This document shows, piece by piece, positions 8,799 through 63,012 of a stretch of 64,000 nucleotides of DNA. The first letter of the stretch is position 1; each line of letters starts with the position of its first letter. The notes beneath the pieces were generated by a model, which saw only the letters and a list, made by a program, of their open reading frames with translations, searched no databases and was not told the DNA's origin. A program made the translations under genes and the position numbers. This DNA is from Candidatus Staskawiczbacteria bacterium (GTDB taxonomy: Bacteria > Patescibacteriota > Minisyncoccia > Minisyncoccales > Staskawiczbacteraceae): positions 1,299-65,298 of the forward strand of contig JAPLYZ010000012.1 of NCBI GenBank assembly GCA_026395295.1. Reading direction: 5' to 3'.

Positions 8799-10001
8799 AT
8801 GAATTTTAAGATATTAAAAAAATCAAAAATCAGCAGGGCCAGGTTGGGTTTTTTGGAAACAGAGCACGGAGTTGTTGAAACCCCGTGTTTAGTTCCTGTG
8901 GCGACTCAGGCAGTTGTAAAAACATTAGACAGCAAAGAGGTTGAGGAAACTAAATCCCAAATTTTAATTTCCAACACTTTTTGGTTGCATTTGAGGCCAG
9001 GGGAGAAAGTCGTGGAGAAGGCAGGCAAGTTGCATAAGTTTATGAATTGGAAGAAACCGCTGATGACTGACTCGGGCGGTTACCAGGTTTTTTCTTTGGG
9101 CTTTGGCAGAGATTTTGGCTTAGGAAGTAAATTGGCGCTCGGCAACGAAATTTTTTCTCGCCTCGACCCGTCTGCTGACGGTGCCCACTCGTCTCGAAAA
9201 AACTTGTTGCCTCGCGCCATGGAGATAAAAGCGGGAGCGCAGCCGCAAAATTTAATAATTAATAGCGATGGCGTGGTCTTTCGTTCGCCCATAAATGGCG
9301 ATGAATTATTCTTGGGCCCCAAGGAATCAATAAAAATACAGGAAAAACTGGGAGCAGATATTATTTTTGCTTTTGATGAATGTACGCCCCCTATGGCTGA
9401 TTTTGATTATGTTAAAAAATCGTTAGAAAAAACTCATAATTGGGCAAAAATTTGTTTGAAAGCAAAAAAAACGAAGCAAGCGCTTTATGGAATTGTTCAA
9501 GGTTCAAGGTTTAAGGATTTAAGGGTTGAAAGCGCAAAATTTATCGGTGGATTAAATTTTGATGGTTTTGGGATTGGTGGAGAGTTTGGCAACAGTAAGA
9601 AAGAAATGAGCCAAATGTTGCAATGGGTTGCAGACGAACTGCCGGAAAAGAAGCCTCGACACCTCTTAGGGGTCGGTTATTTAGAAGACATGGAAGCAAT
9701 AATAAAATCCGGCGTTGACACTTTTGACTGCACCGTTCCAACTCACTATGCAAGGCGCGGGATTGCTTTTACCTCTGAGGGGAAACTGAATTTAAAACAG
9801 ACAAAATTTTTGAAAAAAATAGAGCCATTAGATAAAAATTGCGTTTGCAATGTGTGTTTAAATTACAAAAAAGATTATATATGCCATTTGCTGAAAGCGG
9901 GGGAGATAACCGGCATGAAACTTTTAACTTTTCATAATCTTTGGTATTTTAATACATTTGTTGAAGAGATAAGAAATAAAATAAAAAAAGGGGAGATATA
10001 A
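8799..10001 (+). CDS. tgt: queuine tRNA-ribosyltransferase (tRNA-guanine transglycosylase)
   Basis: TDSGGYQVFSL active-site block, FDECTPP, GIGGEFG, and a zinc site CVCNVC...H. Contains an in-frame repeat insertion at 9136-9216. Confidence 0.9.
   Translation: MNFKILKKSKISRARLGFLETEHGVVETPCLVPVATQAVVKTLDSKEVEETKSQILISNTFWLHLRPGEKVVEKAGKLHKFMNWKKPLMTDSGGYQVFSLGFGRDFGLGSKLALGNEIFSRLDPSADGAHSSRKNLLPRAMEIKAGAQPQNLIINSDGVVFRSPINGDELFLGPKESIKIQEKLGADIIFAFDECTPPMADFDYVKKSLEKTHNWAKICLKAKKTKQALYGIVQGSRFKDLRVESAKFIGGLNFDGFGIGGEFGNSKKEMSQMLQWVADELPEKKPRHLLGVGYLEDMEAIIKSGVDTFDCTVPTHYARRGIAFTSEGKLNLKQTKFLKKIEPLDKNCVCNVCLNYKKDYICHLLKAGEITGMKLLTFHNLWYFNTFVEEIRNKIKKGEI
9136..9216. repeat. CGCTCGG...CCTCGC palindromic element (family 2) inserted in frame in tgt
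   Basis: cgctcggcaacgaaattttttctcgc...aaaaaacttgttgcctcgcg is colinear with the intergenic element at 60289-60373. It is 81 nt (27 codons) and encodes ALGNEIFSRLDPSADGAHSSRKNLLPR. Confidence 0.75.
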
Positions 10002-10034
10002 ACCCCGTCATCCCGTCATTCGACGGGGCAAGAG

Positions 10035-10081
10035 TTATCCACAAGCGTGCTATTGACACGCTTTTTTATTAGTAATAAAAT
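10035..10081 (+). promoter_or_regulatory. candidate promoter of the fur-family gene with upstream TTATCCACA (DnaA-box consensus) motif
   Basis: TTATCCACA at 10035-10043, TTGACA at 10053-10058, 17-nt spacer, TAAAAT at 10076-10081. The near-palindrome aataattatcatt (10091-10103) just downstream resembles a Fur/PerR box. Confidence 0.45.
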
Positions 10082-10110
10082 GTATTAAGGAATAATTATC
10101 ATTAAGAAAC

Positions 10111-10158
10111 GCGCTGGCAGACGAAAGTTTTAGGGACAAACAAATCGTCTGCCAGCGC
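10111..10158. repeat. 14-bp perfect GC-rich hairpin in the fur leader
   Basis: gcgctggcagacga (10111-10124) pairs with tcgtctgccagcgc (10145-10158) around a 20-nt loop, 8 nt upstream of the start codon. Confidence 0.8.
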
Positions 10159-10166
10159 GTAAAAAA

Positions 10167-10571
10167 ATGTCTAAAGCAATTAAAGAAAGAATGACGGCGC
10201 AAAAGAGTTTTATATTTGGCTATTTAAAAAGCGTTAAAACCCACCCGTCAGCGGAAACTGTTTATAATGAGGTCAAGAAAAGACTACCCAACATCAGCCA
10301 GGGCACAGTTTATAGAGTTCTGAATAATTTTAAAGAAAAGGGGAGTATCCAGGCAATTGATACAAAAGATACAGTTCACTTTGACGCTGACATATCAGAC
10401 CACGCGCATTTTATATGTGAAACCTGCGGGAGTGTTTTTGACGTAATAGAAGAATGCTCCAAATGCGGAGTTCTAAAAAACAAAAAAACAAAGGTCGGCT
10501 CAATTAATAAGTATCAAATAAAATTTTATGGAATTTGCAAAAAATGCAGAAAACAAGTTTGTTCACACTGA
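10167..10571 (+). CDS. Fur family transcriptional regulator (Fur/PerR/Zur-like)
   Basis: wHTH (PSAETVYNEVKKRLPNISQGTVYRVLN), HFICETCG and a C-terminal CxxC pair. Confidence 0.85.
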   Translation: MSKAIKERMTAQKSFIFGYLKSVKTHPSAETVYNEVKKRLPNISQGTVYRVLNNFKEKGSIQAIDTKDTVHFDADISDHAHFICETCGSVFDVIEECSKCGVLKNKKTKVGSINKYQIKFYGICKKCRKQVCSH

Positions 10572-11764: not shown

Positions 11765-12427
11765 ATGATAACGCTAAACGATGTTAAAAATAGTCCGCAG
11801 GTTGTAAATTTTATAAATCAGACCGAGCGAGCCATGACTGCTTTGCATTATACCAACCATGGACTTCGGCACACTAATTTGGTTGCCGAGAGAGCAAGCC
11901 AAATTGCAAAGGGGATTGGCTTGTCCCAAAGAGAAGCCGAACTGGCTTCAATCGCCGGATTTTGTCATGACATGGGAAATTTTATGACAAGAACATTTCA
12001 CCATTATTATGCCGCTCTGCTTTTTCACCAGATATTTCAACACGAGTTTGAGCCGGAAGAAATTTCTACAGTGATGCAAGCAATTGCTAACCATGACAAA
12101 GAGGAGATGAATTTTTCCCACTCGGTTTCATCTGTGCTTGTTTTAGCTGACAAATCGGACGTGAACAGGACAAGAGTAACTGAAAAAGATATAAACAAAA
12201 TAAAATTAGACATCCATGACAAAGTAAATTACGCTACAACAGAAAGCAATTTGAAAATTGATAAAACTAAAAAAAGAATAACGTTGACTTTAAAAATTGA
12301 TACGAATTTCTGTCCCATAATGGAGTATTTCGAAATTTTTACAGAAAGAATGGTTTTTTGCAGAAAAGCGGCTGAATTTTTGGGATATGAGTTTGGTTTA
12401 GTAATTAACAAATTTAGGTTGTTATGA
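11765..12427 (+). CDS. HD domain phosphohydrolase
   Basis: HGLRHT...AGFCHDMGN (H...HD signature). Confidence 0.7.
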   Translation: MITLNDVKNSPQVVNFINQTERAMTALHYTNHGLRHTNLVAERASQIAKGIGLSQREAELASIAGFCHDMGNFMTRTFHHYYAALLFHQIFQHEFEPEEISTVMQAIANHDKEEMNFSHSVSSVLVLADKSDVNRTRVTEKDINKIKLDIHDKVNYATTESNLKIDKTKKRITLTLKIDTNFCPIMEYFEIFTERMVFCRKAAEFLGYEFGLVINKFRLL

Positions 12428-12894
12428 TAGGCAGAGAGTTTTATGTTATTTGCGATAATATAAGAAGCCTAGAGAATATAGGGTCAATTTTCAGGACATC
12501 GGACGCGCTTGGGGTTGATAAAATATATCTGTGCGGAATATCAGGGCGTCCACCACATCACAAAATTTCTAAAACCGCGCTAGGAGCAGAAGAAACAGTC
12601 CAATTTGAATATCACAGACAAATAGGGCGGTTGATTGATAAATTAAAAAAAGATAAAATTATAATTGTGGCATTGGAGCAGGGCAAAAGAGCGATTGATT
12701 ACAGAGAATTTAAACCAAAGTTTCCACTGGCCTTAATAATTGGCAACGAGGTTAAAGGAATTTCTAAAAAAATTCTACAAAAATGCGACAAAATAATTTT
12801 TTTGCCTATGTCTGGCGCAAAAGAATCATTAAACGTATCTGTGGCCTTCGGCATCGCAGGCTACCACATAATTAATATCGCTCGCCCCGCTTAG
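12424..12894 (+). CDS. SpoU/TrmH family RNA 2'-O-methyltransferase
   Basis: NIGSIFRTSDALG, LIIGNEVKGIS and SLNVSVAFGIA motif blocks. The last codons and stop lie in a palindrome. Confidence 0.85.
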   Translation: MIGREFYVICDNIRSLENIGSIFRTSDALGVDKIYLCGISGRPPHHKISKTALGAEETVQFEYHRQIGRLIDKLKKDKIIIVALEQGKRAIDYREFKPKFPLALIIGNEVKGISKKILQKCDKIIFLPMSGAKESLNVSVAFGIAGYHIINIARPA

Positions 12895-12911
12895 CGGGGC
12901 TCGCAAAAAAA

Positions 12912-14519: not shown

Positions 14520-14531
14520 GTATTACGCCTC

Positions 14532-14563
14532 GGTAAAAACTACGCCATGGCGTAGTTTTTACC
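14532..14563. repeat. perfect 32-nt palindrome upstream of the isc promoter
   Basis: ggtaaaaactacgcc|atggcgtagtttttacc, perfectly self-complementary around a central ccatgg. Confidence 0.85.
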
Positions 14564-14570
14564 ACGGGTG

Positions 14571-15062: not shown

Positions 15063-16237
15063 AAAGAATATATTTTGATTATGCCGCCACAACACCTGTT
15101 GATAAAAGAGTTTTAAAAGAGATGGAGCCATATTTTTCAGAGAAATTTGGCAATACCATGTCTTTGCACTCTTTTGGACAGGAAGCAAAATTAGCCCTAG
15201 ACCAATCAAGGCAGGTTTTGGCTGATTTAATTAATGCCAAACCAAACGAAATAATTTTTACAAGTTCTGCCACAGAAAGCAATAATCTTGCCTTGAAGGG
15301 CGTGGCATTGGCTACCAGGAAACTGGATTCCCGTTTTCACGGGAATGACAATGCGCACATTGTAATTTCTTCCATAGAACATCCATGTATTATGGAGTCG
15401 GCAAAGTGGCTGGCTAAGAATGGATTTGAAATTACGAAATTACCGGTTGATAAATATGGGCGGGTGAATCCAAAGGATGTTGAGAGGGCAATTACAGAAA
15501 AAACCATTCTGGTTTCTGTTATGCACGCCTCTAACGAAATAGGCACAATTGAGCCAATTGAAGAAATTGGGAAAATTTGCCGGCAGAAAGGGGTTTATTT
15601 TCACACAGACGCCTCGCAATCATTTGGGAAAATTCCAATTGACGTTGAGGAGATGAATATAGATTTGCTGACTGCCAGCTCTCACAAAATGTACGGGCCC
15701 AAAGGAGCAGGTCTTTTGTATGTCCGTAACGGAGTGAAAATTGAGCCGATTTTGCATGGAGGAGGGCAAGAAAATGGAATGAGGAGTTCAACAGTAAATG
15801 TTCCGGCAATTGTCGGTTTTGCCAAAGCCACTGAAATTTGTAAGGCAGAAATGAAGAGGGAAGGGGTGAGATTGGCAAAACTAAGAGACAAATTAATTAA
15901 AGGAGTTTTAAAAATAAAAGGCGCAAAATTAAACGGAGACCCCAGAAATAGATTGCCAAACAATATCAACGTTTCTTTTCCTTCAATAGAAGGGGAGTCG
16001 TTGATTATTCATTTGGACTTATATGGAATTGCCTGTTCAACGGGATCAGCTTGCTCATCGGCAAAATTAGAGCCAAGCTATGTGCTTTTGGCTATTGGGC
16101 TTAAACCAGAGGAGGCTCATGGGTCTTTGCGGATTTCTTTAGGCAGACAAACAACCGAGAAGGAAATAGGGTATTTTTTAAAAGTTTTGCCAAAAATTGT
16201 TGAAAAATTAAAAAAAATGTCCCCGTTTAAATTATGA
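15059..16237 (+). CDS. iscS: cysteine desulfurase (NifS/IscS type)
   Basis: PLP-lysine block SSHKMYGPKG and catalytic-loop GSACSS. Adjacent to the IscU scaffold. In-frame repeat at 15323-15350. Confidence 0.9.
   Translation: MKRIYFDYAATTPVDKRVLKEMEPYFSEKFGNTMSLHSFGQEAKLALDQSRQVLADLINAKPNEIIFTSSATESNNLALKGVALATRKLDSRFHGNDNAHIVISSIEHPCIMESAKWLAKNGFEITKLPVDKYGRVNPKDVERAITEKTILVSVMHASNEIGTIEPIEEIGKICRQKGVYFHTDASQSFGKIPIDVEEMNIDLLTASSHKMYGPKGAGLLYVRNGVKIEPILHGGGQENGMRSSTVNVPAIVGFAKATEICKAEMKREGVRLAKLRDKLIKGVLKIKGAKLNGDPRNRLPNNINVSFPSIEGESLIIHLDLYGIACSTGSACSSAKLEPSYVLLAIGLKPEEAHGSLRISLGRQTTEKEIGYFLKVLPKIVEKLKKMSPFKL
15323..15350. repeat. family-1 half element in frame in iscS
   Basis: ctggattcccgttttcacgggaatgaca, encoding LDSRFHGNDN. 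Confidence 0.8.
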
Positions 16238-17454: not shown

Positions 17455-18669
17455 ATGCGAAAATTAGATAGAAAAAATATAAGAGTTGTGGTTGCAATGT
17501 CAGGAGGGGTTGATTCAAGCGTGGCGGCTGCCTTATTAAAAAGGCAGGGTTCTTGTGCTGAGCCGGGTCGAAGCATTGACGTGGTTGGAATTTTTATGAA
17601 ATTTTGGTCCGACCAAAGCGCTTCGCGCATTGTGACGGATAAAAAAGATAACACTAATCGATGTTGCAGTTTAGAAAGCGAGAAATTGGCAAGGTTGGTT
17701 GCCAAAAAAATTGGCATTCCATTTTATGTTTTAAACGTGGAGAAAGAATTCAAGAAAAAAGTTGTTGATTATTTTTTGGAAGAATACAAAAAAGGGAATA
17801 CTCCCAACCCCTGTGTAGTTTGCAACAAAGAAATTAAATTTGGATTTTTAATAAAAAAAGCGCTGGAGCTTGGCGCTGATTTTGTTGCCACCGGCCATTA
17901 CACCCGCATTTCTGTCATTCCCAGCTTGACTGGGAATCCAGGAAAAGTAGAAAACACTCTGGATTCCCGCTTTCGCGGGAATGACAAGAGACAATTCAAA
18001 TTATTAAAGGGAAAAGACAAAAATAAAGACCAAAGCTATTTTTTGTGGCAATTAAGTCAGGAACAGTTAAGCCATGTATTGTTTCCGGTTGGAGGATATA
18101 TAAAACCGGAAGTAAGAAAGTTGGCTAGAAAATTTAATTTGCCCACAGCAGAAACTCCGGAATCGCAGGAGGTTTGTTTTGTTTCTGACAGTGTAAACAA
18201 TTTTTTAAAAAAGTATCTCAAACCAAGCCCGGGCGAGATAAAAAACGCGGATGGGGAAATTTTGGGACAGCACAATGGTTTGTGGTTTTATACAATTGGT
18301 CAGAGGAGGGGATTGGAAATTGCTCAAGGGCCGTGGTATGTTGTTGGAAAGGATTTTAAAAAAAATGCGCTGATTATTTCTAAAAATAAAAAAAATTTGC
18401 TAAAAAAAGAACTAATTGTTAAAAACGTAAATTGGGTTTCTGATGAATACGCTGAATTCTGCGGTCGCAGAAAAAAAAGTATCCTTGATGTTGAGGTTAA
18501 AATAAGATACAAAAGCAATTTTGCCAAAGCTAAAATTTTTAGTGTCGGAAAAAATAAAGTAAAAGTTGTTTTTCAAAAACCTCAGCAAGCAATTACCCCA
18601 GGCCAGTCTGCTGTGTTCTATAAAGGCAAAGAATTACTTGGTGGAGGCGTAATTATAGCTGACGATTAA
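17455..18669 (+). CDS. mnmA: tRNA-specific 2-thiouridylase MnmA
   Basis: PP-loop AMSGGVDSS, catalytic CC...NPCVVCN, ATGHY and KDQSYFLW. A 74-nt repeat is inserted in frame between ATGHY and KDQSYFL. Confidence 0.9.
   Translation: MRKLDRKNIRVVVAMSGGVDSSVAAALLKRQGSCAEPGRSIDVVGIFMKFWSDQSASRIVTDKKDNTNRCCSLESEKLARLVAKKIGIPFYVLNVEKEFKKKVVDYFLEEYKKGNTPNPCVVCNKEIKFGFLIKKALELGADFVATGHYTRISVIPSLTGNPGKVENTLDSRFRGNDKRQFKLLKGKDKNKDQSYFLWQLSQEQLSHVLFPVGGYIKPEVRKLARKFNLPTAETPESQEVCFVSDSVNNFLKKYLKPSPGEIKNADGEILGQHNGLWFYTIGQRRGLEIAQGPWYVVGKDFKKNALIISKNKKNLLKKELIVKNVNWVSDEYAEFCGRRKKSILDVEVKIRYKSNFAKAKIFSVGKNKVKVVFQKPQQAITPGQSAVFYKGKELLGGGVIIADD
17913..17986. repeat. composite family-1 element in frame in mnmA
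   Basis: tgtcattcccagcttgactgggaatccagg-aaaagtagaaaacact-ctggattcccgctttcgcgggaatgaca, encoding SVIPSLTGNPGKVENTLDSRFRGNDK. Confidence 0.85.
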
Positions 18670-20788: not shown

Positions 20789-20808
20789 AAAGCTAAATAA
20801 AGAAGTTT

Positions 20809-20876
20809 TGTCATTCCCAACTTGATTGGGAATCCAGAAAAATTTGACCCTGGATTCCCGCTTTCGCGGGAATGAC
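20809..20876. repeat. composite family-1 palindromic element
   Basis: tgtcattcccaacttgattgggaatccag-aaaaatttgacc-ctggattcccgctttcgcgggaatgac. Confidence 0.85.
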
Positions 20877-22287: not shown

Positions 22288-22384
22288 AATCCAAAGTTCA
22301 AATATCAAATCAAATCCAAAGCTCAAATGCGTTTTGAAATTGGGATTTTGAACTTGATTTGAAATTAGAATTTTGAAATTTTAA
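22288..22384. repeat. AT-rich 'tcaaat / atttga' word hairpin
   Basis: The left arm is rich in tcaaat words (22288-22330) and the right arm in their complement atttga/tttgaa (22331-22380). The inverted repeat is imperfect. Confidence 0.65.
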
Positions 22385-22387
22385 ATT

Positions 22388-22594
22388 ATGGTAAAAGCTA
22401 CATCTAAAACAACACTAAACAAAATTATTGGAATGAAAAATGGGGAAAAAATTCTATTGAAGCACAGTGTGCCGTGTTTGTCGTGCCCCATGGCTTCGTT
22501 TGAAATTGATAAATTAAAAATTGGCGAAGTCTGCAAAATGTACGGGTTGAATCTTAAAAAAATATTAAAAGAGTTGAACGAAATAAAAAAATGA
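22388..22594 (+). CDS. DUF1858 domain protein (redox-disulfide-type small protein)
   Basis: 68 aa with VPCLSCPMA...IGEVCKMYG. Family recalled as DUF1858. Stop overlaps the copA start (ATGA). Confidence 0.6.
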   Translation: MVKATSKTTLNKIIGMKNGEKILLKHSVPCLSCPMASFEIDKLKIGEVCKMYGLNLKKILKELNEIKK

Positions 22595-24762
22595 AAAAGA
22601 TAGTTTTAAAAATTGGAGGTATGACCTGCGCTTCTTGCGCTTCGGTTATTGAATATGGATTGAGAAAAGAGAAAGGAATCACTTCTGCCAGCGTTAACAT
22701 TGCTTCGGAAAAAGCCTACCTTGATTTTGACGACCAAAAAATTACAGAAAAAGATATAGAAAAAACAATAAAAGATTTGGGATACAGGGTTGTTAAAGAC
22801 GAGATGGAAAATGGGGCGAGAGGTTTGAGGAATAGATTTTGGTTATCTTTGGTTTTAGGTTTGCCAATTATTTTTACAATGATTCCGGGGTTAATGGGTC
22901 TGCCGAAATATATTCAGGCGATTTTATCTGCTTTGGTTATTTTAGTTTGTTTTGATATTTGGAAATCCGGATTTAAAAAGTTGGTTAAATTGGCGCCGAA
23001 CATGGATTCATTGATCTTTATCGGAACGGCTGTGGCATTTTTTTATAGTTTATCGCAATTGTTTTTGGGACGGGCCAAAGGATACCCCGTTTATTTTGAA
23101 AGCGCAGTTTTCATTTTGATTTTTATCTCGTTGGGAAAGTATTTAGAGGCTGTGACGAAAGGCAAAACATCGGCGGCGATTAAAAGTTTGATGGGGCTTC
23201 AACCGAAAGTGGCAACGATAATAAAAAATGGCAGGGAATTGGAAGTTCTAATATCAGAAGTACAAGTTGGAGATGTTATTTTGGTAAAACCCGGTCAGAA
23301 AATTCCGGTTGACGGAATTGTTGTTGATGGGTATTCTGGCGTTGACGAAAAAGCAATTACAGGAGAATCAATTCCGGTTGAAAAGAAAAAAGGCGATGAG
23401 ATTATTGGAGCCACAATAAATAAAACAGGTGTTTTGAAATTCAAAGCGACAAGAATCGGAAAAGATACAATGCTTTCGCAAATTATCAAAATTGTGGAAG
23501 ATGCCATGGGAAGCAAAGCTCCAATTCAGCTTTTAGCCGATAAAGTTTCTTTTTATTTTGTGCCTGCTGTAATCGTTATAGCCTTAGCGTCGGGACTAGT
23601 TTGGTTTTTAGCAGTTCATCAGCTTGCAATGGCTCTTACTGTCTTTGTCGCTGTATTAATAATTGCTTGTCCATGCGCATTGGGATTGGCGACCCCAACA
23701 GCGGTGATGATGGGAGCCGGTTTAGCGGCAAAAAGCGGAATTTTAATAAAGTCTTCTAAAGCTTTAGAAGTGGCAAAAGATGTGAATATGGTTGTTTTTG
23801 ATAAAACAGGCACGCTGACCAAAGGCGAGCCGATTGTAACAGATGTAATGCCGATAAATTCAAATTTCAAATTTCAAATTTCAAATTTAATTCAGATTGC
23901 GGCGTCGGTGGAGAAAAATTCAGAGCATCCTTTGGCGCAGGCAATTGTGAATAAAGCGAAGGAAAAAAATCTTGCCCCGAGCGAAGTCGAAGGGTTTCAG
24001 GCAATTCCGGGCAAAGGGGTTATTGGAAAAATCCAAATTTCAAATTTCAAATTTCAAAACATTTTACTGGGGACAAGGAAACTTATGAAAGACAATAAAA
24101 TTTCTGTTGACGCTATAGAAGAAAAGATGGCGGCGCTTGAAAACCAGGGGAAAACAGCAATGGTTTTAGCTATCTCGGGAAAAGTTGTGGGAATTATCGC
24201 AGTGGCTGATGTTTTGAAGGAAAATTCCAAACAAGCAGTTGATATGTTGCACAAAATGGGTAAGTCTGTGGCGATTATTACAGGAGATAACAAAAGAGTG
24301 GGTGAGGCAATTGCTAAACAGCTTGGGGTAGACCGGGTGCTGGCGGAAGTCCTTCCACAAGGAAAATCTGATGAAATTAAAAAATTGCAGGCCGAGGGGA
24401 AAATTGTGGCAATGGTGGGTGATGGAATTAATGATGCGCCGGCCTTGGCTCAGGCAAATCTGGGAATTGCTTTGGGATCTGGTACAGATGTGGCAATGGA
24501 AACAGGGGAAATTGTTTTGATAAAAGATGATTTAAGAGATGTTGTAAAAGCAATCGATCTGAGCAGGTATACTTTGAATAAGATAAAACAAAATTTATTT
24601 TGGGCGTTTTTTTACAACATAATTGGAATACCAATCGCTGCAGGAGTTTTCTTTCCACTGACAGGTTGGCTGTTAAGTCCTTCTATTGCCGCCGGGGCTA
24701 TGGCGTTTTCTTCTGTTAGTGTTGTATTGAATTCTTTGAGTATGAAGTTTCACGGTGTTTGA
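22591..24762 (+). CDS. copA: copper-translocating P1B-type ATPase
   Basis: N-terminal GMTCASC HMA domain, TGES, CPC (ACPCALGLATP), DKTGTLT and GDGINDAP. Two in-frame caaattt repeats in the N-domain. Confidence 0.9.
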   Translation: MKKIVLKIGGMTCASCASVIEYGLRKEKGITSASVNIASEKAYLDFDDQKITEKDIEKTIKDLGYRVVKDEMENGARGLRNRFWLSLVLGLPIIFTMIPGLMGLPKYIQAILSALVILVCFDIWKSGFKKLVKLAPNMDSLIFIGTAVAFFYSLSQLFLGRAKGYPVYFESAVFILIFISLGKYLEAVTKGKTSAAIKSLMGLQPKVATIIKNGRELEVLISEVQVGDVILVKPGQKIPVDGIVVDGYSGVDEKAITGESIPVEKKKGDEIIGATINKTGVLKFKATRIGKDTMLSQIIKIVEDAMGSKAPIQLLADKVSFYFVPAVIVIALASGLVWFLAVHQLAMALTVFVAVLIIACPCALGLATPTAVMMGAGLAAKSGILIKSSKALEVAKDVNMVVFDKTGTLTKGEPIVTDVMPINSNFKFQISNLIQIAASVEKNSEHPLAQAIVNKAKEKNLAPSEVEGFQAIPGKGVIGKIQISNFKFQNILLGTRKLMKDNKISVDAIEEKMAALENQGKTAMVLAISGKVVGIIAVADVLKENSKQAVDMLHKMGKSVAIITGDNKRVGEAIAKQLGVDRVLAEVLPQGKSDEIKKLQAEGKIVAMVGDGINDAPALAQANLGIALGSGTDVAMETGEIVLIKDDLRDVVKAIDLSRYTLNKIKQNLFWAFFYNIIGIPIAAGVFFPLTGWLLSPSIAAGAMAFSSVSVVLNSLSMKFHGV
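23857..23890. repeat. heptamer tandem repeat (caaattt x4) inside copA, in frame
   Basis: aatt caaattt caaattt caaattt caaattt aa, encoding NSNFKFQISNL. Confidence 0.85.
24033..24060. repeat. heptamer tandem repeat (caaattt x3) inside copA, in frame
   Basis: c caaattt caaattt caaattt caaaac, encoding QISNFKFQN. Confidence 0.85.
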
Positions 24763-26303: not shown

Positions 26304-26380
26304 TAAAAACCAGTGGGTTCATATTTCACGCGATAGCGTAGTTTCTGAACCGGCTAAGAAAGTTTAATTTTCAAAAATAT
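26304..26380 (+). promoter_or_regulatory. conserved 77-nt leader, copy 1 (candidate cis-regulatory RNA)
   Basis: taaaaaccagtgggttcatatttcacgcgatagcgtagtttctgaaccggctaagaaagtttaattttcaaaaatat. Outer stem ggttca/tgaacc and inner stem acgc/gcgt. Near-identical to 28143-28220. Confidence 0.55.
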
Positions 26381-28142: not shown

Positions 28143-28220
28143 TAAAAACCAGTAGGTTCATATTTTACGCGATAGCGTAGTTTCTGAACCCACTAAGAAA
28201 GTTTAATTTTCAAAAATATC
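28143..28220 (+). promoter_or_regulatory. conserved 78-nt leader, copy 2
   Basis: taaaaaccagtaggttcatattttacgcgatagcgtagtttctgaacccactaagaaagtttaattttcaaaaatatc. About 6 differences from copy 1. Confidence 0.55.
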
Positions 28221-29981: not shown

Positions 29982-30039
29982 TAAATTTTGGTTGTAAAGA
30001 AAAAATAGGGTATAATGGAATATAAGCTAAATTATTTTA

Positions 30040-30165
30040 ATTATTCTAATTGCTCTAATTATTCTAAATAATATCTAATTTCCAATTTTTAAATTATTTT
30101 AAGCATTAGGCATTTTGGAATTAGCATTTGATTAGGTTAATTAGACTAATTAGGTTAATTAGAAA
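30040..30165. repeat. AT-rich 'ctaatt / aattag' word hairpin upstream of the SDR gene
   Basis: The left arm has ctaatt-type words (30044-30086) and the right arm aattag-type words (30103-30162). Includes the 18-mer taattaggttaattagaa (30147-30164). Confidence 0.65.
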
Positions 30166-30173
30166 TTTCAATT

Positions 30174-30986: not shown

Positions 30987-31101
30987 TCGCTCGGAAAATA
31001 ATTTTCTGCTAACGCTCGTGTCCTTCGGGCTTCGCCCTCAGGAAACTCGCTTCGACAGGCGCTTTGCGTCCTGTAATACGCTGAAAATCATTTTCCTCGC
31101 T
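30987..31101. repeat. family-2 palindromic element (~115 nt, CGCTCGG...CCTCGCT termini)
   Basis: tcgctcggaaaataattttctgctaacgctcgtgtcc...gtaatacgctgaaaatcattttcctcgct. Close copy at 62905-63012. Confidence 0.85.
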
Positions 31102-31352: not shown

Positions 31353-31390
31353 ATCTTACAAAACCTCAAACGTTTTAGGTTTTGTAAGAT
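31353..31390. promoter_or_regulatory. 38-nt palindrome (candidate operator) overlapping a TATAAT upstream of 31426
   Basis: atcttacaaaacct-caaacgtttt-aggttttgtaagat, a 14-bp perfect stem. TATAAT at 31349-31354. Confidence 0.5.
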
Positions 31391-31425
31391 GGGTGATATA
31401 ATAGAATAAAAAATAGAATAAAAGC

Positions 31426-31953: not shown

Positions 31954-31955
31954 CT

Positions 31956-47930: not shown

Positions 47931-48025
47931 GTTTAGAATAATTAGGTTAATTAGAATAATTTTTATAATGTATCTTACCACCTTCTTTTCTTTTTTGCAA
48001 TATGTGATAATATAGAGAAACAAAT

Positions 48026-49586: not shown

Positions 49587-49704
49587 TTTATGCTCGTAAC
49601 AAAAAGATGTCACTTGTTATCGCTATCGCGAATACAACTGCATTCTAGTTTATATCAATCATTTCAAATTGATTTTAATTTTCAAATTTTAAATTCTAAA
49701 TTTT

Positions 49705-51780
49705 ATGTCTAGAGTTCATCCTTTAGAAACTTTAAGAAACATTGGTATTATTGCTCACATTGACGCAGGAAAAACTACTTTTTCCGAGCGACTTTTATTT
49801 TATACGGGGACTAGCCACAAAATTGGAGAGGTTCACGAGGGCGACACTGTTATGGATTGGATGGTGCAGGAAAGAGAGCGCGGAATTACAATTACTGCAG
49901 CCGCTACCACAATGTATTGGAAAAATCATCAGATAAACCTAATTGACACCCCTGGGCATATAGACTTTACTGCCGAGGTTCAAAGAAGCTTGCGCGTGCT
50001 TGACGGCGCAGTTGTTGTTTTTGACGGAGTTGCCGGAGTTGAGCCACAGTCGGAAACAGTTTGGAGGCAGGCAGACAAATATAATGTGCCGAGGGTTTGC
50101 TTTGTAAATAAATTAGACAGAATGGGAGCAAGCTTTGAAAAAAGTTTTCAGTCAATTTTGAATAAATTGACTCCCAACGCCATTGCCGTAAGCTTGCCCA
50201 TGGGTTTAGAAGAAAAATTGTCTGGAGTTATTGATTTGATAAAAATGAAGGCCTTGTATTTTGAAGGAGACAAAGGAATTCAGATTATTGAAAAAGAAAT
50301 CCCCGAAGAGTGGAAAGCAGAAGCCGAAGCCTGGCACAAGAAAATGGTAGAGAAAATCGCCGGAGAAGATAACACCTTAACAGAAAAGTTTTTGGAAGGA
50401 AAAGAAATCTCAGTTCAAGAGTTAAAAAATGTTTTGAGAAAATCAGTTTTGAATTATAAAATAGTGCCGGTTTTTTGCGGAAGCGCTTTGAAAAACAAGG
50501 GAGTGCAGACAATTTTAGACGCAGTTGTTGATTATTTGCCCTCGCCCTTGGATTTGCCCGCGCAAAAAGGAATTGACCCTAAAACCGGAGCCACCATTGA
50601 GAAAAAAGCATCAGACGACGAGCCGTTTGCAGCTTTGGTTTTTAAAATTGCCACAGACCCGTTTGTGGGAACTTTGACTTATTTTAGAATTTATTCGGGA
50701 GTTTTGAAAAAAGGCTCTTATGTGTTGAATGCCAACAACGGAGAACAGGAAAGAATTTCCCGAATTTTAAGAATGCACGCTGATGAAAGGCAGGAGTTGG
50801 ATTTATTGTGCGCCGGAGAAATTGGAGCTACAGTTGGATTGAAAGCCACCAGCACGGGAAACACATTGTGCGACAAAGACCACCCGGTTATTTTAGAAAA
50901 AATTGTCTTTCCGGAACCGGTTATTGGAATTAGGGTGGAGCCAAAAACAAAAGTTGATCAGGAAAAACTTATTATGTCTATCCGCAAGCTTACTGAAGAA
51001 GACCCAACTTTTAGAATTAAAGAAGATATTGAAACCGGAGAAACAATTATTTCCGGCATGGGAGAATTGCACTTAGATATTATTGCCGACAGGTTGAAGA
51101 GAGAGTTTCACGTTGAGGCAAACTATGGCAGACCTCAGGTAGCTTACAAAGAAACAATAACAGCCGAAGCCGAGGGCGAGGAAAAATATGTCAGGCAGTC
51201 CGGAGGAAAAGGACAATATGGACACGTTTTACTGAGAGTTAAGCCAAAGGAAAGGGGCGCCGGATTTGAATTTGTTGATGAAATCAAAGGAGGGTCAATT
51301 CCAAAAGAGTTTATTAAGCCGGTTGAAAAAGGAATTGTGGAAGCAATGGACAAAGGAGTTGTTGCCGGCTACCCAATGGTTGATGTTGAGGTTACTTTGT
51401 ACGACGGAAGCTTCCACGAAGTTGACTCTTCGGAATTTGCTTTCAAGATTGCCGGCTCTATGGCCTTCCAGCAGGCGGCTAAAAAAGCAAGGCCGGTTAT
51501 TTTGGAGCCGGTTATGAAAATGGAAGTTGTTACTCCGGAAGATTTTTTTGGACAAGTTATTTCTGACTTAAGTTCAAGAAGAGGGCAGATTAAAGAAACA
51601 TCGGAAAGAGTTGGAATGAAAGTTATTGATGCCGTGGTTCCGCTGTCGGAAACATTTGGATATGCCACGTCAATCCGTTCGTTAACAGAAGGAAGAGCAA
51701 GTTTTACAATGGAATTTAACAGTTATGAAAACGTACCTTCAAATATAGCCCAGGAAATTGTGGAAGGAAAAAGAAAGTAA
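49705..51780 (+). CDS. fusA: elongation factor G
   Basis: [23 protein letters not shown] and NKLDR GTPase motifs. 691 aa. Confidence 0.95.
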
Positions 51781-51790: not shown

Positions 51791-51856
51791 TGTTATCCCC
51801 GCGGAGGCGGGGATCCAGGTTTTAAATCTGGATTCCCAATCAAGTTGGGAATGACA
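51791..51856. repeat. composite family-1 palindromic element
   Basis: tgttatccccgcggaggcggggatccagg-ttttaaat-ctggattcccaatcaagttgggaatgaca. Confidence 0.85.
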
Positions 51857-51908
51857 AGTTTAATAATTTTATAAAAAAAGAGCCCGGCGAAAATCGCAAG
51901 GCTATAGG

Positions 51909-52186: not shown

Positions 52187-52215
52187 TTGACTTAGACAAA
52201 ATAATATAATAAGAT
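52187..52215 (+). promoter_or_regulatory. candidate tuf promoter
   Basis: TTGACT (52187-52192), 17-nt spacer, TAAGAT (52210-52215). The leader is then made of atttcaaat-type repeats. Confidence 0.45.
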
Positions 52216-52230
52216 AAGCAAACATTAAAA

Positions 52231-52303
52231 ATTTCAAATTTCTAATTTCAAATTTCTAATCAATTTCAAATTGATTTCAAATTTCAAATTTCTAATTTCA
52301 AAT
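52231..52303. repeat. AT-rich caaattt-type repeat leader of tuf (23-mer direct repeat)
   Basis: atttcaaatttctaatttcaaat occurs exactly at 52231-52253 and 52281-52303, flanking tcaatttcaaattga. Confidence 0.8.
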
Positions 52304-52310
52304 TATCGCT

Positions 52311-53507
52311 ATGGCTACAGAAAAATTTGAGAGGTCAAAACCTCACGTTAACGTTGGTACTATCGGCCACGTTGACCACGGAAAAACAACATTGTCAGCC
52401 GCAATTATGAAAGTTTCAAAATTGCGCGGTTTTAGGTCTTCTGACAAAGACGTTGACCAAATTGATGCTTCGCCTGAAGAAAAAGCCAGAGGCGTGACAA
52501 TTTCCATTACTCACTTGGAATTTGAGACAGCAAAAAGGCATTATGCTTTAATTGACTGCCCCGGACACGCTGACTACATTAAGAACATGATTACGGGAGC
52601 CGCTCAAATGGACGGCGGAATACTTTTGGTTTCTGCTCCAGACGGCCCAATGCCTCAAACTAAAGAGCACATTCTTTTGGCTCGCCAGGTAGGCTTGCCA
52701 TCTTTGGTTGTGTTTATGAATAAATGCGATATGGTTGACGACCCTGAAATTTTGGATTTGGTTGAATCGGAAGTTCGAGAGCTGTTGAAGAAAAATGGCT
52801 TCCCGGGAGACGAAACACCGGTTATCAGAGGTTCTGCCACAAAAGCATTGGAAGCAACTTCAGTTGAAGATGCGGCAGTGAAACCAATTATTGAATTATT
52901 AGACGCAGTTGACAACTATATTCCCGAGCCAAAAAGAGAATTAGATAAACCATTTGCTATGGCTGTTGAAGACGTATTTTCAATTGAAGGAAGGGGAACA
53001 GTGGCAACAGGAAGAATTGAAAGAGGAGTTGTTCATCCAAACGATGAAGTTGAAATAATTGGTATCAGACCAACCCAAAAAACAGTCGTTGTTTCGGTTG
53101 AAATGTTCCAAAAGTCTTTGGACGAAGGAAGAGCAGGAGACAACGTCGGAATTTTGTTAAGAGGTTTGAAAAAAGAAGACATAGAGAGAGGACAAGTTAT
53201 CTGCAAACCGGGTTCCATTACTCCTCACACTGAATTCGTTGGCGAAGTCTATGTTTTGTCAAAAGATGAAGGAGGAAGACACACTCCGTTTTTCTCAGGA
53301 TACAAACCTCAGCTCTACATTCGAACATCTGATATTACAGGCGACGTAACCTTGCCCGAAGGCACAGAAATGGTAATGCCAGGAGACACAGCCAACTTAA
53401 ATGTTAAACTGATCGTACCGGTTGCTTTGGAAGAAAAAGGCAGATTTGCAATTAGAGAAGGCGGAAAAACAGTCGGAGCAGGAGTTGTAACAAAAATTAC
53501 CAAGTAA
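52311..53507 (+). CDS. tuf: elongation factor Tu
   Basis: [17 protein letters not shown] and NKCD motifs. 398 aa. Confidence 0.95.
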
Positions 53508-54644: not shown

Positions 54645-55274
54645 ATGAAATATGCAGTTTACAATCAAGAAGGAGCAGAACTGGAAAAGATAACCTTGCC
54701 CAAGGAAATTTTTGATGTAAAGTTCAATGCTGATTTAGTCCACCAGATTTCAGTCTCTTTGTCGGCCAACAAACGCCAAATTTCAGCCCACACCAAAAAC
54801 CGGGGCGAGGTTGCCGGCGGAGGCAAAAAACCGTGGAGGCAGAAAGGAACAGGCAGATCGAGGCATGGGTCAATTCGCTCTCCATTATGGAAGGGCGGGG
54901 GAATTACTCACGGTCCAAGAGCGGAAAGAATTTTTGAAAAAGAGGTTCCTAAAAAAATGAGAAGAAAAGCCTTGTTTATGGTGTTGAGCCAGAAAGCAAA
55001 GGATAACCAATTGGTGGTTCTGGATAAAATACAGCTTGAAAAAGGAAAAACAAAAGAAATGGCAGGTTCCCTTGCCAAATTACCATGCAAACAGAACAGC
55101 ACATTAATTGCATTGCCAAATTACGATAAGAAGATATTTTTAGCTTCAAGAAATATAAAAAAGACATTCATTGAAGATGCAAGAAATTTAAATGTTTTAG
55201 ATTTATTGAATACAAAATATTTATTACTGACAAAAGAGAGCATTATGACTTTAAAAAATACTTTTTTAAAGTAA
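54645..55274 (+). CDS. rplD: 50S ribosomal protein L4
   Basis: GGGKKPWRQKGTGRSRHGSIRSPLWKGGG. Confidence 0.9.
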   Translation: MKYAVYNQEGAELEKITLPKEIFDVKFNADLVHQISVSLSANKRQISAHTKNRGEVAGGGKKPWRQKGTGRSRHGSIRSPLWKGGGITHGPRAERIFEKEVPKKMRRKALFMVLSQKAKDNQLVVLDKIQLEKGKTKEMAGSLAKLPCKQNSTLIALPNYDKKIFLASRNIKKTFIEDARNLNVLDLLNTKYLLLTKESIMTLKNTFLK

Positions 55275-55310
55275 TTTCAAATTAAAAATTTCAAATTTCA
55301 AATTTATAGT

Positions 55311-55778
55311 ATGGCATTATTAGATTTTTTAAAAAATAAAAAACAGGCTGAGAAAGCAAAAAAACCCGCCTCCGCAAAAAGCTATGGAGAGGCAAAGCCG
55401 GCTAAAAAAGCTGAGAAGGTTTCAAATGTAAAGAAACCCGCCCAAAAGGCAAAACCTATTGAGGCGGGCCCGCAACAATCTCGCCAGAAGGCGAGTTTGG
55501 GCAGGTTTTCATACGAGGCCATAAAACAGCCGCATATATCGGAAAAGGCCAGTTATCTAGCAGAAAAAGATCAATACATATTTGACGTTCTGCCAAATTA
55601 TAACAAAAACGAAATTAAAAATTCAGTAGAAGGAATTTACGGAGTAGATGTTTTGTCAGTTAACATAATAAAAATTCCGGCAAAAAAGAGAAGATTAGGC
55701 AGGACAGAAGGATTTAGAAAAGCTTACAAAAAGGCAATTGTTAAAATTAAAAATGGTCAAAAAATAGAAATACTTTAA
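55311..55778 (+). CDS. rplW: 50S ribosomal protein L23 (with ~60-aa Lys/Ala-rich N-terminal extension)
   Basis: The C-terminal half IKQPHISEKA...YIFDV...NKNEIKNSVEGIYGVDVLSVN is L23-like. Confidence 0.85.
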   Translation: MALLDFLKNKKQAEKAKKPASAKSYGEAKPAKKAEKVSNVKKPAQKAKPIEAGPQQSRQKASLGRFSYEAIKQPHISEKASYLAEKDQYIFDVLPNYNKNEIKNSVEGIYGVDVLSVNIIKIPAKKRRLGRTEGFRKAYKKAIVKIKNGQKIEIL

Positions 55779-60288: not shown

Positions 60289-60373
60289 TCGCTCGGCAAC
60301 TAAGTTTTTCTCGCGGGACATCCTCTCTTACAGGGGAGCCAACGTCCCGCTCCAAAAACTTAATTGCCTCGCT
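60289..60373. repeat. family-2 palindromic element between rpsN and rpsH
   Basis: tcgctcggcaactaagtttttctcgcgggac...gtcccgctccaaaaacttaattgcctcgct. The arms caactaagttttt/aaaaacttaattg and gcgggac/gtcccgc pair. Confidence 0.8.
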
Positions 60374-61362: not shown

Positions 61363-61713
61363 ATGAGCATAAAAAACGACAAAAGAATAAGAAGGCATAA
61401 AAAAATAAGGATGAATATGCATGGCACCAAGGATAGGCCAAGGCTTTTCGTTTTTAGATCAAATCAGCATATTTATGCTCAGTTGATTGACGACGATAAA
61501 GACAAAGTCTTAATGAGTTTTTCCGACAAGAGTTTAAAACTAAAAAAAGGAGAAAAAAAATCTGAAGCCGCAAAACAGGTAGGAAAACTGATGGCCGAAA
61601 AAGCTATGGGCAGTAAGATAGAGAAAGTCATTTTTGACAGAGGTGGAGTTCTTTTTCATGGTCGCATAAAAGCATTGGCTGACGGAGCAAGAGAAGGAGG
61701 ACTGAAGTTTTAA
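61363..61713 (+). CDS. rplR: 50S ribosomal protein L18
   Basis: RRHKKIR....G...RPRL.VFRSN.HIYAQLIDD...FDRGG..FHGR.KALAD.ARE.GL.F. Confidence 0.9.
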   Translation: MSIKNDKRIRRHKKIRMNMHGTKDRPRLFVFRSNQHIYAQLIDDDKDKVLMSFSDKSLKLKKGEKKSEAAKQVGKLMAEKAMGSKIEKVIFDRGGVLFHGRIKALADGAREGGLKF

Positions 61714-61764
61714 TTAAAATTAAAACTTCAATATTTCAACATTTAAATATTTAAATATCAAAAA

Positions 61765-62412
61765 ATGGCAGACGAAATAAAAAAAGAAGAACCAAAAACA
61801 GAAGTGGCAAAAGCTGTAAATGATGGCTTCAAGCCAATTTCTACCGGTGATCAGCCGGCTCCGCAAAGAGCAGGCGGGCAAAGAGGTGGAGGCTTTGGGC
61901 CTGCCTCGCGTCAAGGCGGGCAAAATAGAAGGCCTGGTTTTGGTAGAGCCGGATTTGGAAAAGATAGGCCAAAAGACGACTTTCAGACAAAACTTTTGGA
62001 TTTAGCCAGAGTTACAAGAGTTACGGGCGGAGGCAAAAGAATGAGTTTCCGAGCTGTTGTGGTTGCCGGAGATAAGAAGGGTAAGGTTGGAATTGGAATT
62101 GATAAAGGAAAAGACGTTTCTCAGGCAATCGAAAAAGCCACCAGGCGCGCCAAAAGAGATTTAGTAAATGTTATTATAGTAGAAGGAACAATTCCTCACG
62201 AAGTTGAGGCAAAGTCCGGACCGGCGGTGATTTTGTTAAAGCCTCAGAAAAAAGGAAGAGGGTTGGTGGCGGGAGGGGCTGTCAGGATGATTTGCGATTT
62301 AGCTGGAATTAAAAATATTTCTTCGAAAATTCTTTCAGGTTCAAAAAATAAATTGAACAACGCCAGAGCCACAATGGAAGCTCTGAAAAAATTAAAAGCG
62401 AAAAGTTCATAA
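61765..62412 (+). CDS. rpsE: 30S ribosomal protein S5 (with ~70-aa Gly/Arg-rich N-terminal extension)
   Basis: The core LLDLARVTRVTGGGKRMSFRAVVVAGD.KG.VG.G..K is preceded by QRAGGQRGGGFGPASRQGGQNRRPGFGRAGFGKDRP. Confidence 0.9.
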   Translation: MADEIKKEEPKTEVAKAVNDGFKPISTGDQPAPQRAGGQRGGGFGPASRQGGQNRRPGFGRAGFGKDRPKDDFQTKLLDLARVTRVTGGGKRMSFRAVVVAGDKKGKVGIGIDKGKDVSQAIEKATRRAKRDLVNVIIVEGTIPHEVEAKSGPAVILLKPQKKGRGLVAGGAVRMICDLAGIKNISSKILSGSKNKLNNARATMEALKKLKAKSS

Positions 62413-62470
62413 AGTTCGTCAAGTCGGACTTTAAAACTCGATAAACTTTAAAATTTGATAAACTACAGCT

Positions 62471-62902
62471 ATGCAAATTCACGAACTAAAACCAAAACAT
62501 AAGAATAGGGGTAAAAAAAGAGTTGGCAGGGGAGGAAAGCACGGAACTTACTCCGGTAAAGGAATAAAGGGTCAGAAATCCAGAGCCGGCAGGAAGATGG
62601 TGCCAATAATCAGGGAATTAATTAAAAGATATCCGAAATTGAAAGGATATAGAAGTTTTGCTATAGAAAATTATTTTGCCCTAGTTAGTCTTGAATCTTT
62701 AGAAAAAAATACAAAAGACGGAGAAATTATAAATCCGGAAAATTTGATTAAAAAAGGACTTGTGAGTAAAGTAAAAGGAAAGGTGCCGAAAGTGAAGATA
62801 TTGGGTGATGGTAAGCTGACAAAAAAACTGGTTATAGAAAATTGTAAGTTTTCTAAAACCGCTAAAACAGCCATTGAGAAGGCAGGAGGAACAATCAAGT
62901 AA
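62471..62902 (+). CDS. rplO: 50S ribosomal protein L15
   Basis: LKPKHKNRGKKRVGRGGKHGTYSGKGIKGQKSR. It follows rpsE directly, with no L30 gene between them. Confidence 0.9.
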   Translation: MQIHELKPKHKNRGKKRVGRGGKHGTYSGKGIKGQKSRAGRKMVPIIRELIKRYPKLKGYRSFAIENYFALVSLESLEKNTKDGEIINPENLIKKGLVSKVKGKVPKVKILGDGKLTKKLVIENCKFSKTAKTAIEKAGGTIK

Positions 62903-62904
62903 TA

Positions 62905-63012
62905 TCGCTCGGAAAATGATTTTCTGCTAACGCTCGTGTCCCGCTTCGCGGGAAACTCGCTTCGACAGGCACTACGTGTCCCGTAATACGCTGAAAATCA
63001 TTTTTCCTCGCT
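62905..63012. repeat. family-2 palindromic element between rplO and secY
   Basis: tcgctcggaaaatgattttctgctaacgctcgtgtcccgcttcgcgggaaactcgcttcgacagg...gtaatacgctgaaaatcatttttcctcgct. Close copy of 30987-31101. Confidence 0.85.

Follow-up and report, generated by a model that had tools for sequence, protein, structure and literature searches.

A clamp-defined family of small palindromic repeats in Candidatus Staskawiczbacteria and neighbouring Patescibacteria

This study describes a family of small palindromic repeats found in a 64,000-nt stretch of a Candidatus Staskawiczbacteria genome (contig JAPLYZ010000012.1; hereafter the window, meaning the whole stretch analysed). Comparison of the window with its relatives shows that these non-coding elements, which are defined by a short terminal clamp, have multiplied within genomes and are dispersed; they were probably copied in trans. 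A member is recognised by the clamp, 5'-(T)CGCTCG...CTCGC(T)-3', and not by its interior. The family is specific to Candidatus Staskawiczbacteria and neighbouring Patescibacteria of the candidate phyla radiation (CPR), and its members range from 26 to about 195 nt. The genomes of these bacteria are among the smallest and most tightly packed known in bacteria; despite this compactness, a proliferating hairpin repeat is tolerated in ribosomal-protein operons and in tRNA-modification enzymes. Literature searches turned up no account of repeats of this kind in CPR.

Copies in the window and anatomy of the clamp

The window has a GC content of 39% and carries almost all of its genes on the + strand. 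The closest SecY proteins among species representatives are at most 82% identical and all come from metagenome-assembled genomes (MAGs) of Staskawiczbacteria or Parcubacteria, and the TGT protein of the window has an identical entry from a Staskawiczbacteria MAG. Both strands were scanned for GCTCG, a stem of at least 5 bp and CTCGC, with shuffled sequence as control; five matches were obtained on the + strand and none on the - strand (shuffled mean 0.115, maximum 2). These five copies, 26–113 nt long and all on the + strand, have the termini CGCTCG...CTCGC round a stem (Table 1). When the window was scanned for a generic "clamp", noise swamped the result.

An earlier note, made from the letters of this DNA, had listed four copies, all of which are present, and a possible miniature relative, which proved to be a true member. 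By Pfam, the copies lie inside TGT, at the stop codon of a SpoU methylase gene and in the SDR/DUF5679, S14/S8 and L15/SecY spacers, which upholds the placement proposed for the two copies of the ribosomal operon. The mini copy contributes the final five codons and the TAG stop (12892-12894) of the SpoU gene (12424-12894), the stop falling in its loop, and it ends 7 nt before the ATG (12912) of a DUF5652 gene; similar minis occur in relatives (L151:4225, L160:5071/8457, L173:539, where L-numbers label comparison loci, namely secY neighbourhoods of relatives and metagenome contigs). Long copy A ends 7 nt before the DUF5679 ATG (31109) if its trailing T is counted in the copy, and long copy B ends 7 nt before the secY ATG (63019), or 6 nt if the T is counted, in agreement with the gaps of 7 and 6 nt reported earlier. 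The two long copies are 87% identical, as expected of the close pair that the note had recognised, and the two short copies, described there as sharing termini and arms round different cores, are 75% identical with common arms and differing cores. All copies fold into long hairpins with self-complementary arms (z -3.2 to -7.0 against dinucleotide shuffles), and in the tgt copy the outer helix is lengthened to 5 bp (9134-9218).

The common fold consists of a 2-bp outer helix (GC/GC), a 2x2 internal loop of TC/TC and a long stem opening with G-C pairs. The interior varies: the 26-nt mini has a 3-nt loop, short-type copies have a single hairpin or two, and in long-type copies the arrangement is three-way. 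Relatives were read over neighbourhoods of ~20 kb and metagenomes as short contigs. The long type is composite: its inner hairpin 1 is a mini-module bearing the family termini, and its inner hairpin 2 (CAGGCACTNCGTGTCCYG) recurs as the core of the short-type class most frequent among the listed metagenome matches. The position of the nested module is occupied by a complete short-type element in L234 and by an unrelated stem in L138. Since stacked or nested arms occur on the 5' or 3' side in relatives (L132, L138, L150, L234, L244 and L277), the elements either become inserted in each other or are recombined in modular fashion.

The clamp was compared across 33 distinct termini belonging to at least six stem subfamilies (CAAYAAACTTTTTT, AAAATGATTTTC, TCGAAATGAAAAT, GGAACATAG, CCCCGC and others), which have just 6–7 terminal bases in common. 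Any two terminal mismatches were admitted by the filter, and compensation was therefore not selected for. The loop bases T4, C5, T22 and C23 were unchanged in all 33, and the outer pair beside the loop was CG in 22, UA in 5, GC in 4 and unpaired in one, a compensatory pattern; the inner pairs were freely variable. Paired cells reached 90% against 66% in shuffles, and the covariation score of 0.61 (0.16 in shuffles) was attained by none of 500 shuffles. The core hairpins covary too, one class A pair being GC in 8 copies, UA in 4 and CG in 4. From the mismatched ends and the covarying flanking pairs we infer that recognition of a folded single strand fits better than recognition of duplex inverted repeats.

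The three-way junction of the long type was considered as a hammerhead-like ribozyme and rejected: CUGCUAA agrees with CUGAUGA at 5 of 7 positions, but no GAAA or UH stands at the required positions, and Rfam gave no match. Rfam 15, including its self-cleaving ribozymes, introns and ribosomal-protein leaders, had no match over the elements at E values up to 10. An intrinsic terminator was likewise rejected, as no GC-rich hairpin with a U tract is present and three copies lie inside operons or genes; the sequences 3' of the window copies are TACAAAATATG, TTAAACTATG, TTCAAACTAAAAAAAG, GCCATGG and AAAAAAAATG.

Dispersal among relatives and copies inside genes

The relatives were represented by 80 secY neighbourhoods from related species, all oriented by secY. 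In this set the S14-S8 and L15-SecY spacers are bimodal, 1–28 nt in many relatives (4–28 nt for S14-S8 and 2–18 nt for L15-SecY) and 60–160 nt in others, so that both empty (under 20 nt) and filled orthologous sites, whose comparison the earlier note had proposed, were found. Where the spacers are filled, they contain either the clamp family or hairpin repeats unrelated to it. A match of 88% identity to the window's S14-S8 copy lies in a different spacer, L15-SecY, of another species (L123), and one of 90% to the window's L15-SecY copy lies in the same spacer of L124. Five copies lie within 10 kb of ribosomal operon in L150, three of them, at three loci, being 93–95% identical, and in L138 one composite is present at two loci with 88% identity.

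The metagenome scan used short-type ends on both strands and yielded at least about 48 true elements among the matches listed, in low-GC CPR contigs and in at least five core classes, with conserved arms CGCTCGGCAAYAAACTTTTTT / AAAAAGTTTATTGCCTCGCT. The pattern held the outer 10 nt of each side fixed, and the conservation of these bases is therefore read from separately found copies at genome loci. GC content and fold served to discard about half of the listed matches, which were due to chance or to a conserved but unrelated 88-nt stretch of coding sequence from GC-rich soil bacteria. A relaxed scan for termini plus stem gave 164 matches and 166 in a reversed-sequence control, and its stricter subsets alone were retained. 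The listed metagenome copies adjoin many housekeeping genes (trmD, rnc, rpsP, rpsG/fusA, frr, nusA and tig), and some junctions recur. Copies restricted to a few loci and fixed in position across distant relatives, the pattern that the earlier note had set against a dispersed repeat, were thus not what was found; the copies are dispersed over many gene contexts. Together, these comparisons showed that the elements have multiplied within genomes, occupy different sites in different genomes and nest in one another. No copy was found in phage, plasmid and viral-contig collections; in viral contigs, the loose pattern gave GC-rich chance matches only, and the eight matches of the specific pattern were likewise GC-rich chance.

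Two observations concern the surroundings of these sites. In nine relatives (L123, L129, L130, L134, L147, L149, L157, L171 and L192) the S14-S8 or L15-SecY spacers contain unrelated hairpins of 60–130 nt, built of short repeats such as GTTATAAAGTT, TACGAATTACGAA, CCTAAATCC and AGTAGTTTGTAG, and the two junctions seem to attract, or need, hairpins of whatever sequence. In L242, L250, L291 and L322 a strong conserved hairpin with a T-run (AGACAAAAACCGTGCTAAYATTAGTGCGGTTTTTGTTT) stands directly upstream of the element, before trmD; this hairpin probably terminates the KH-domain/S16 unit that precedes it, and the element is wedged between the hairpin and trmD.

Several copies lie within coding sequence. 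The tgt copy, given earlier as exactly 81 nt and translated, measures 80 nt by the motif and 81 nt with one flanking base; it is in frame and stop-free, as had been stated, and forms 27 codons (residues ~113-139, ALGNEIFSRLDPSADGAHSSRKNLLPR). The insert falls in a variable loop between positions ~93 and 94 of the Pfam TGT profile, and a metagenomic TGT (L223, 73% identical) has a 78-nt in-frame copy with a different core at the same site. Three MnmA genes (L210, L279 and L297) contain copies of 103, 94 and 86 nt in one loop after ATGHYA, and these use three different 5' reading frames. All five intragenic copies (two in tgt, of 80/81 and 78 nt, and three in mnmA) are in frame and stop-free.

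The TGT loop was surveyed in the 116 closest homologs with a readable loop (75–86% identity). About 85 have a short empty loop (GLGSKILKKEQERGE...), about 10 a full LGN...LLPR insert and about 6 an in-frame remnant, for example SLGNQTKDKNLLPR, SLAPEKSLLPR or SLGNKISEG; at the level of sequence, copies in coding positions were thereby shown to erode slowly. Between the two tgt copies the identity per codon position is flat (0.65/0.73/0.65), whereas the flanks give 0.82/0.87/0.49, and the constraint, or the recency, therefore lies at the nucleotide level of the arms and not in the peptide. In composition-matched shuffles the three sense frames contain 212 +/- 12 stops, against 94 in the elements and 183 in their antisense frames. 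When the element-encoded peptides were compared with a protein database, an artificial alignment of three modules gave one non-significant match.

An intron-like element, which at the clamp would be excised from the mRNA or bypassed by ribosomes and would leave TGT and MnmA free of the extra residues, would suit both the flat codon-position profile and a hairpin that places its two ends side by side. It is nevertheless very improbable. Copies of differing length all hold the frame without stops, the TGT remnants are in-frame deletions of the kind that translated sequence would give, no group I/II intron or ribozyme was matched, and the clamp is not a bulge-helix-bulge motif. The intragenic copies argue instead for read-through translation, which they would undergo in place of splicing or ribosomal bypass. 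In-gene copies of Rickettsia palindromic elements (RPEs) are translated by read-through (PMC10969869, PMC3733652).

Orientation, movement and rival explanations

Orientation is strongly biased: nearly all copies read in the sense direction, set in the few nucleotides from a stop codon to the next start or, in frame, in surface loops of enzymes (TGT, MnmA). Copies with exact termini number 18 on the + strand and none on the - strand in the window and the 80 secY-oriented loci, and among the 48 listed metagenome copies 44 point the same way as the nearest gene (p = 1.5e-9; both strands searched). A co-oriented stop codon lies at most 8 nt upstream in 23 of these 48, a start codon at most 20 nt downstream in 23, and both in 13. 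A second repeat family of the window, of the CGTC type of repetitive extragenic palindromes (REPs), occurs in both orientations, and a generic selection on the facing of hairpins is therefore unlikely. The sense bias could be linked to transcription, to replication (through single-stranded DNA) or to selection, gene strand and replication direction being confounded here.

Target-site duplications and a cognate transposase, both suggested as checks by the earlier note, were looked for with negative results. Direct duplication of the flanks was not significant at any offset or k (16 observed against 10 expected at best), the flanks being A/T-rich, about ..AAT(A/T)T|CGCTCGG ... CCTCGC|TTAA.... 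No RAYT gene or other transposase occurs among the recurrent neighbours in the ~20-kb neighbourhoods, no cognate transposase was seen there or on the listed metagenome contigs, and a search of 1.5 Mb of related loci for an autonomous element, as paired ends 0.3–4 kb apart, gave nothing convincing.

In the explanation that we consider probable, the element is non-autonomous, and an enzyme acting in trans would copy it; this enzyme would recognise the clamp in folded single-stranded form, not as inverted repeats in a duplex. The invariant terminal mismatch and the sense bias point to a mechanism specific for strand and for structure. If the enzyme reads a folded single strand, the invariant mismatch, the compensatory changes, the failure to find a target duplication and the strand bias would all follow. 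Copying would proceed without target duplication, and a single-strand route like that of HUH enzymes or the REP-RAYT system is our best guess, offered tentatively. The element would afterwards ride passively in mRNAs. At tight junctions the closed hairpin would bring the stop and start codons back to ~5–25 nt apart, and this rejoining of the upstream stop with the downstream start may be why coupled operons tolerate the insertions; the stop-start distance after closure resembles that of empty spacers, and no Shine-Dalgarno sequence is evident in either. Inside genes, tolerance may come from the depletion of stop codons in the sense strand. Any role in RNA processing or stability would be secondary.

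Several points weigh against this explanation. G-T and A-C "wobbles" are nearly equal (90 against 86) with G-U counts equal on both strands, and in 59 of 61 copies prediction gives the greater stability to the antisense strand, whose clamp is a tandem G-A/A-G. Clear antisense copies were seen twice, in L300 (within a run of six genes on the - strand) and in L260, and selection instead of mechanism could be the source of the strand bias. The stop depletion is partly non-independent, being inflated by arms shared through descent. A reading as TAA-element-TAA suits each of the five filled L15-SecY sites, and a constant 2–3 bp A/T target duplication (TA or TAA) may have gone unseen in a comparison drawn between related species. 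The element is kept in the rplO-secY spacer of the window, L123, L124, L132, L138 and L232, where retention for function could explain its presence. No autonomous partner or recurrent transposase gene was found near any copy in the ~20-kb neighbourhoods and listed metagenome contigs.

Some of these points bear equally on a functional cis-acting RNA module, that is, an operon "punctuation", an RNase III-type site, a stabiliser or a coupling device, to which a host protein would bind and which selection would preserve, the spread of copies being incidental. The near-exclusive sense orientation, the placing of about half of the listed metagenome copies 0–8 nt from a stop and 1–20 nt from a start, and the nucleotide-level conservation inside tgt accord with such a module. 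The invariant TC/TC loop with covarying flanks resembles a protein-binding motif, the rplO-secY element is kept in six genomes while unrelated hairpins fill the same spacers in other relatives, and a precedent exists in the processing of Correia elements by RNase III (PMC10969869). We nevertheless regard it as unlikely, since the same junctions are empty in many close relatives, copies within coding loops decay, G-U pairs show no excess over A-C and the antisense strand folds better, two copies are antisense, and no Rfam family was matched. Equally doubtful is the proposal that the clamp is the recognition site of a CPR-specific, strand-specific enzyme system, working either by single-strand copying into the sense strand or by genome-wide punctuation or processing of mRNAs; if true, its mechanism would lie outside the REP-RAYT, IS200/IS605 and DDE-MITE models, the last referring to MITEs (miniature transposable elements with inverted repeats).

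A classical cut-and-paste MITE, derived from an insertion sequence (IS) with a DDE transposase (IS630/Tc1-like or IS5-like) and inserted at TA or TAA through duplex terminal inverted repeats, must also be considered. The arms could serve as long imperfect terminal inverted repeats, the A/T-rich flanks recur as ..TAA(T)AT|element|TTAA.., and the TAA-element-TAA reading fits five of the five filled rplO-secY sites. A transposon of this kind is, however, quite improbable here: the flanks lack significant direct duplication, the ends never agree at their centre (TC against GA), which would be needless for a protein that binds duplex repeats, and an orientation bias of 62 to 2 is not expected of it. 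The subfamilies, moreover, are alike in 6–7 terminal bases alone, and no IS with matching ends occurs in the 1.5 Mb of related sequence.

The fold also recalls integron attC sites, or other site-specific recombination sites that mark cassettes, in its outer helix, unpaired spacer, inner helix and variable terminal structure. The size is like their 57–141 nt, copies stand directly after open reading frames (ORFs) in the same orientation, and some contain ..CAAC...GTTG... The neighbours, however, are not cassettes but ribosomal and tRNA-modification genes of the core set, arranged in a conserved order, which effectively refutes this reading. The R''/R' consensus (RYYYAAC/GTTRRRY) is missing at the termini and in most subfamilies, copies are present inside ORFs, Rfam gave no attC match and no integrase was seen nearby, so that an attC-like origin is scarcely credible.

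Known repeat systems and other features of the window

By analogy, the preferred reading of a clamp-defined, dispersed repeat would make this a new family of a known kind, the small palindromic dispersed repeats that include REP, RPE and MITE-like elements. It is unusual in having a mismatched clamp that is symmetric, a range of sizes that arises by nesting, and a sense orientation that is almost absolute. The earlier note had proposed a MITE/REP-like element, mobile now or formerly; mobility is supported by the empty and filled sites, the same element at other sites, the near-identical copies and the nesting, and strict membership among MITEs, REP-RAYT repeats or RPEs is not. As in MITEs, the arms are complementary over 12–20 nt except for the outermost TC against GA, and multiple dispersed non-coding copies of less than 300 bp are polymorphic between genomes; a target-site duplication, the tag and dimers of REPs and the core sites of attC were not found.

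The closest likeness in habit is to RPEs, small palindromic repeats of a bacterium with a reduced genome that lie between genes and often in frame inside housekeeping genes, including those of tRNA-modification enzymes, and that are translated as extra loop peptides without a transposase of their own (PMC10969869, PMC3733652). RPEs differ in having a conserved consensus of 100–150 bp, where the clamp family has a terminal clamp of 6–7 nt with an invariant TC/TC mismatch, a range of 26–195 nt through nesting, a strong sense-strand bias and a CPR host; no sequence relation is claimed, the families being set apart by description.

REP/REPIN-RAYT repeats are also short imperfect palindromes, located within 20 nt of the ends of upstream ORFs and sometimes intragenic or supplying a stop, and they are thought to be read as folded single strands without target duplication (PMC3116915, PMC3733652). 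Their 20–40 bp palindromes bear an unpaired tag, GTAG or CGTC, at one end (PMC3733652), whereas the clamp family has CGCTCG/CTCGC at both ends, and they predominantly form inverted head-to-head dimers, whereas clamp copies mostly occur singly or, when nested, face the same way, with one orientation strongly preferred.

Correia elements (CREE) of Neisseria and the ERIC, RUP and BOX elements of other bacteria share the size (75–150 nt), the inverted-repeat arms, the co-transcription with neighbours and the hairpins; Correia hairpins are cut by RNase III, and pneumococcal repeats insert into one another (PMC10969869). The clamp family differs from Correia elements and MITEs in that no TA duplication, IHF site or promoter motif was detected, the termini are mismatched and no parent IS was identified. 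The small dispersed repeats of cyanobacteria, as treated by Elhai et al. in 2008, reportedly nest in each other and in hairpins and sit harmlessly in genes; they are said to differ in sequence and host and to have short terminal inverted repeats with target duplication.

The family has practical consequences. It is usable as a strain-typing marker and is a source of mis-annotation through spurious small ORFs, lengthened protein termini and stop codons donated by repeats, and it amounts to a natural experiment in the accommodation of insertions by protein loops and by translational coupling. The mismatched clamp and the sense orientation give concrete starting points in a search for the enzyme by which the element is moved or read, and such an enzyme, once found, could reveal how small repeats spread in genomes with very few conventional transposons.

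Table 1. Clamp-family copies and other repeats or genes in the window.
Feature	Position	Strand	Motif-scan match	Basis or sequence
Short-type copy within tgt (ORF 8799-10001)	9136-9215	+	9137-9215	Pfam, fold, scan
Mini copy at SpoU stop	12879-12904	+	12880-12904	CGCTCG-CCCCGC-TTA-GCGGGG-CTCGC
Long composite copy A, spacer of SDR gene (30174-30965) and DUF5679 zinc-ribbon gene (31109-31270)	30988-31100	+	30989-31100	
Nested mini-module, hairpin P3 of copy A	31013-31050	+		Family termini CGCTCG...CTCGC
Short-type copy, rpsN (S14)-rpsH (S8) spacer	60290-60372	+	60291-60372	Pfam, fold, scan
Long composite copy B, rplO (L15)-secY spacer	62906-63011	+	62907-63011	Pfam, fold, scan
Nested mini-module in copy B	62931-62960	+		CGCTCG-TGTCCCGC-TTC-GCGGGAAA-CTCGC
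Second repeat family	3587-3613(+), 3623-3654, 15323-15349(-), 17913-17942(+), 17959-17985(-), 20808-20838, 20850-20876(-), 51792-51818(+), 51827-51857	both orientations		TGTC-ATTCCCGC-GAAA-GCGGGAAT-CCAG
mnmA	17455-18669			
REPIN-like dimer within mnmA	17913-17986			
Hairpin upstream of Rrf2/IscS genes	14528-14567			CCTCGGTAAAAACTACGCC-ATGG-CGTAGTTTTTACCACGG
AT-rich periodic repeats	22347-22398, 23847-23898, 24020-24071, 49662-49713, 52214-52315, 55264-55315			TTTCAAATTTC type
Tandem paralogs	26304-28042, 28143-29939			
Small AT-rich intergenic repeats	30023-30068, 30141-30170, 37981-38010, 47933-47962	direct and inverted		TTAGAATAATTAGGTTAATTAGAA
PaaX_M gene (ORF)	31426-31953			Cas2-like domain
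Palindromes bracketing PaaX_M gene	31353-31395, 31947-31993			ATCTTACAAAACCTCAAACGTTTNGGTNNTTTGTAAGAT
ORF with 23S rRNA-intervening-sequence protein domain	36554-37393			PF05635
Tandem repeats adjoining this ORF	36844-37434			AGGAnnTnnAAGGA

The second repeat family is a hairpin of 27–31 nt. With its TGTC variant of the tag, 8-bp stem starting with AT, 4-nt loop and CCA tail, it fits, as a putative member, the CGTC-1 REP superfamily, which has been equated with Neisseria dRS3 and Rickettsia RPE-6 (PMC3733652). A CGTC-1-type REP in CPR appears to be previously unreported. Two inverted hairpins of this type form the REPIN-like dimer inside the window's mnmA, where they are in frame and encode approximately VIPSLTGNPGKVENTLDSRFRGNDK. 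The dimer and the clamp elements of the metagenomic MnmA genes share one loop (after ATGHY.R), which is a permissive or hot site common to two unrelated repeat families.

Among the remaining features, the ~40-nt palindromes and the PaaX_M gene that they bracket (175 aa) are near long copy A, the gene lying 325 nt downstream of it. This PaaX/Cas2-like gene was examined as a partner of the element and rejected: homologs lie within 0.7–1.3 kb of elements in L227, L240 and L285, and three such cases against ~0.9 expected are not significant. The hairpin upstream of the Rrf2/IscS genes has a near-perfect 14-bp stem, and its termini exclude it from the family. The AT-rich periodic repeats stand upstream of fusA, tuf and the S10 operon and also inside a P-type ATPase gene, and may be promoter/UP-like tracts or another simple repeat family; the TTAGAATAATTAGGTTAATTAGAA repeats are another small AT-rich family. 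The tandem paralogs (553 and 572 aa) have no Pfam match, and their 77-nt leaders are 95% identical and contain the inverted repeat GGTTCATATTTYACGCGATAGCGTAGTTTCTGAACC.

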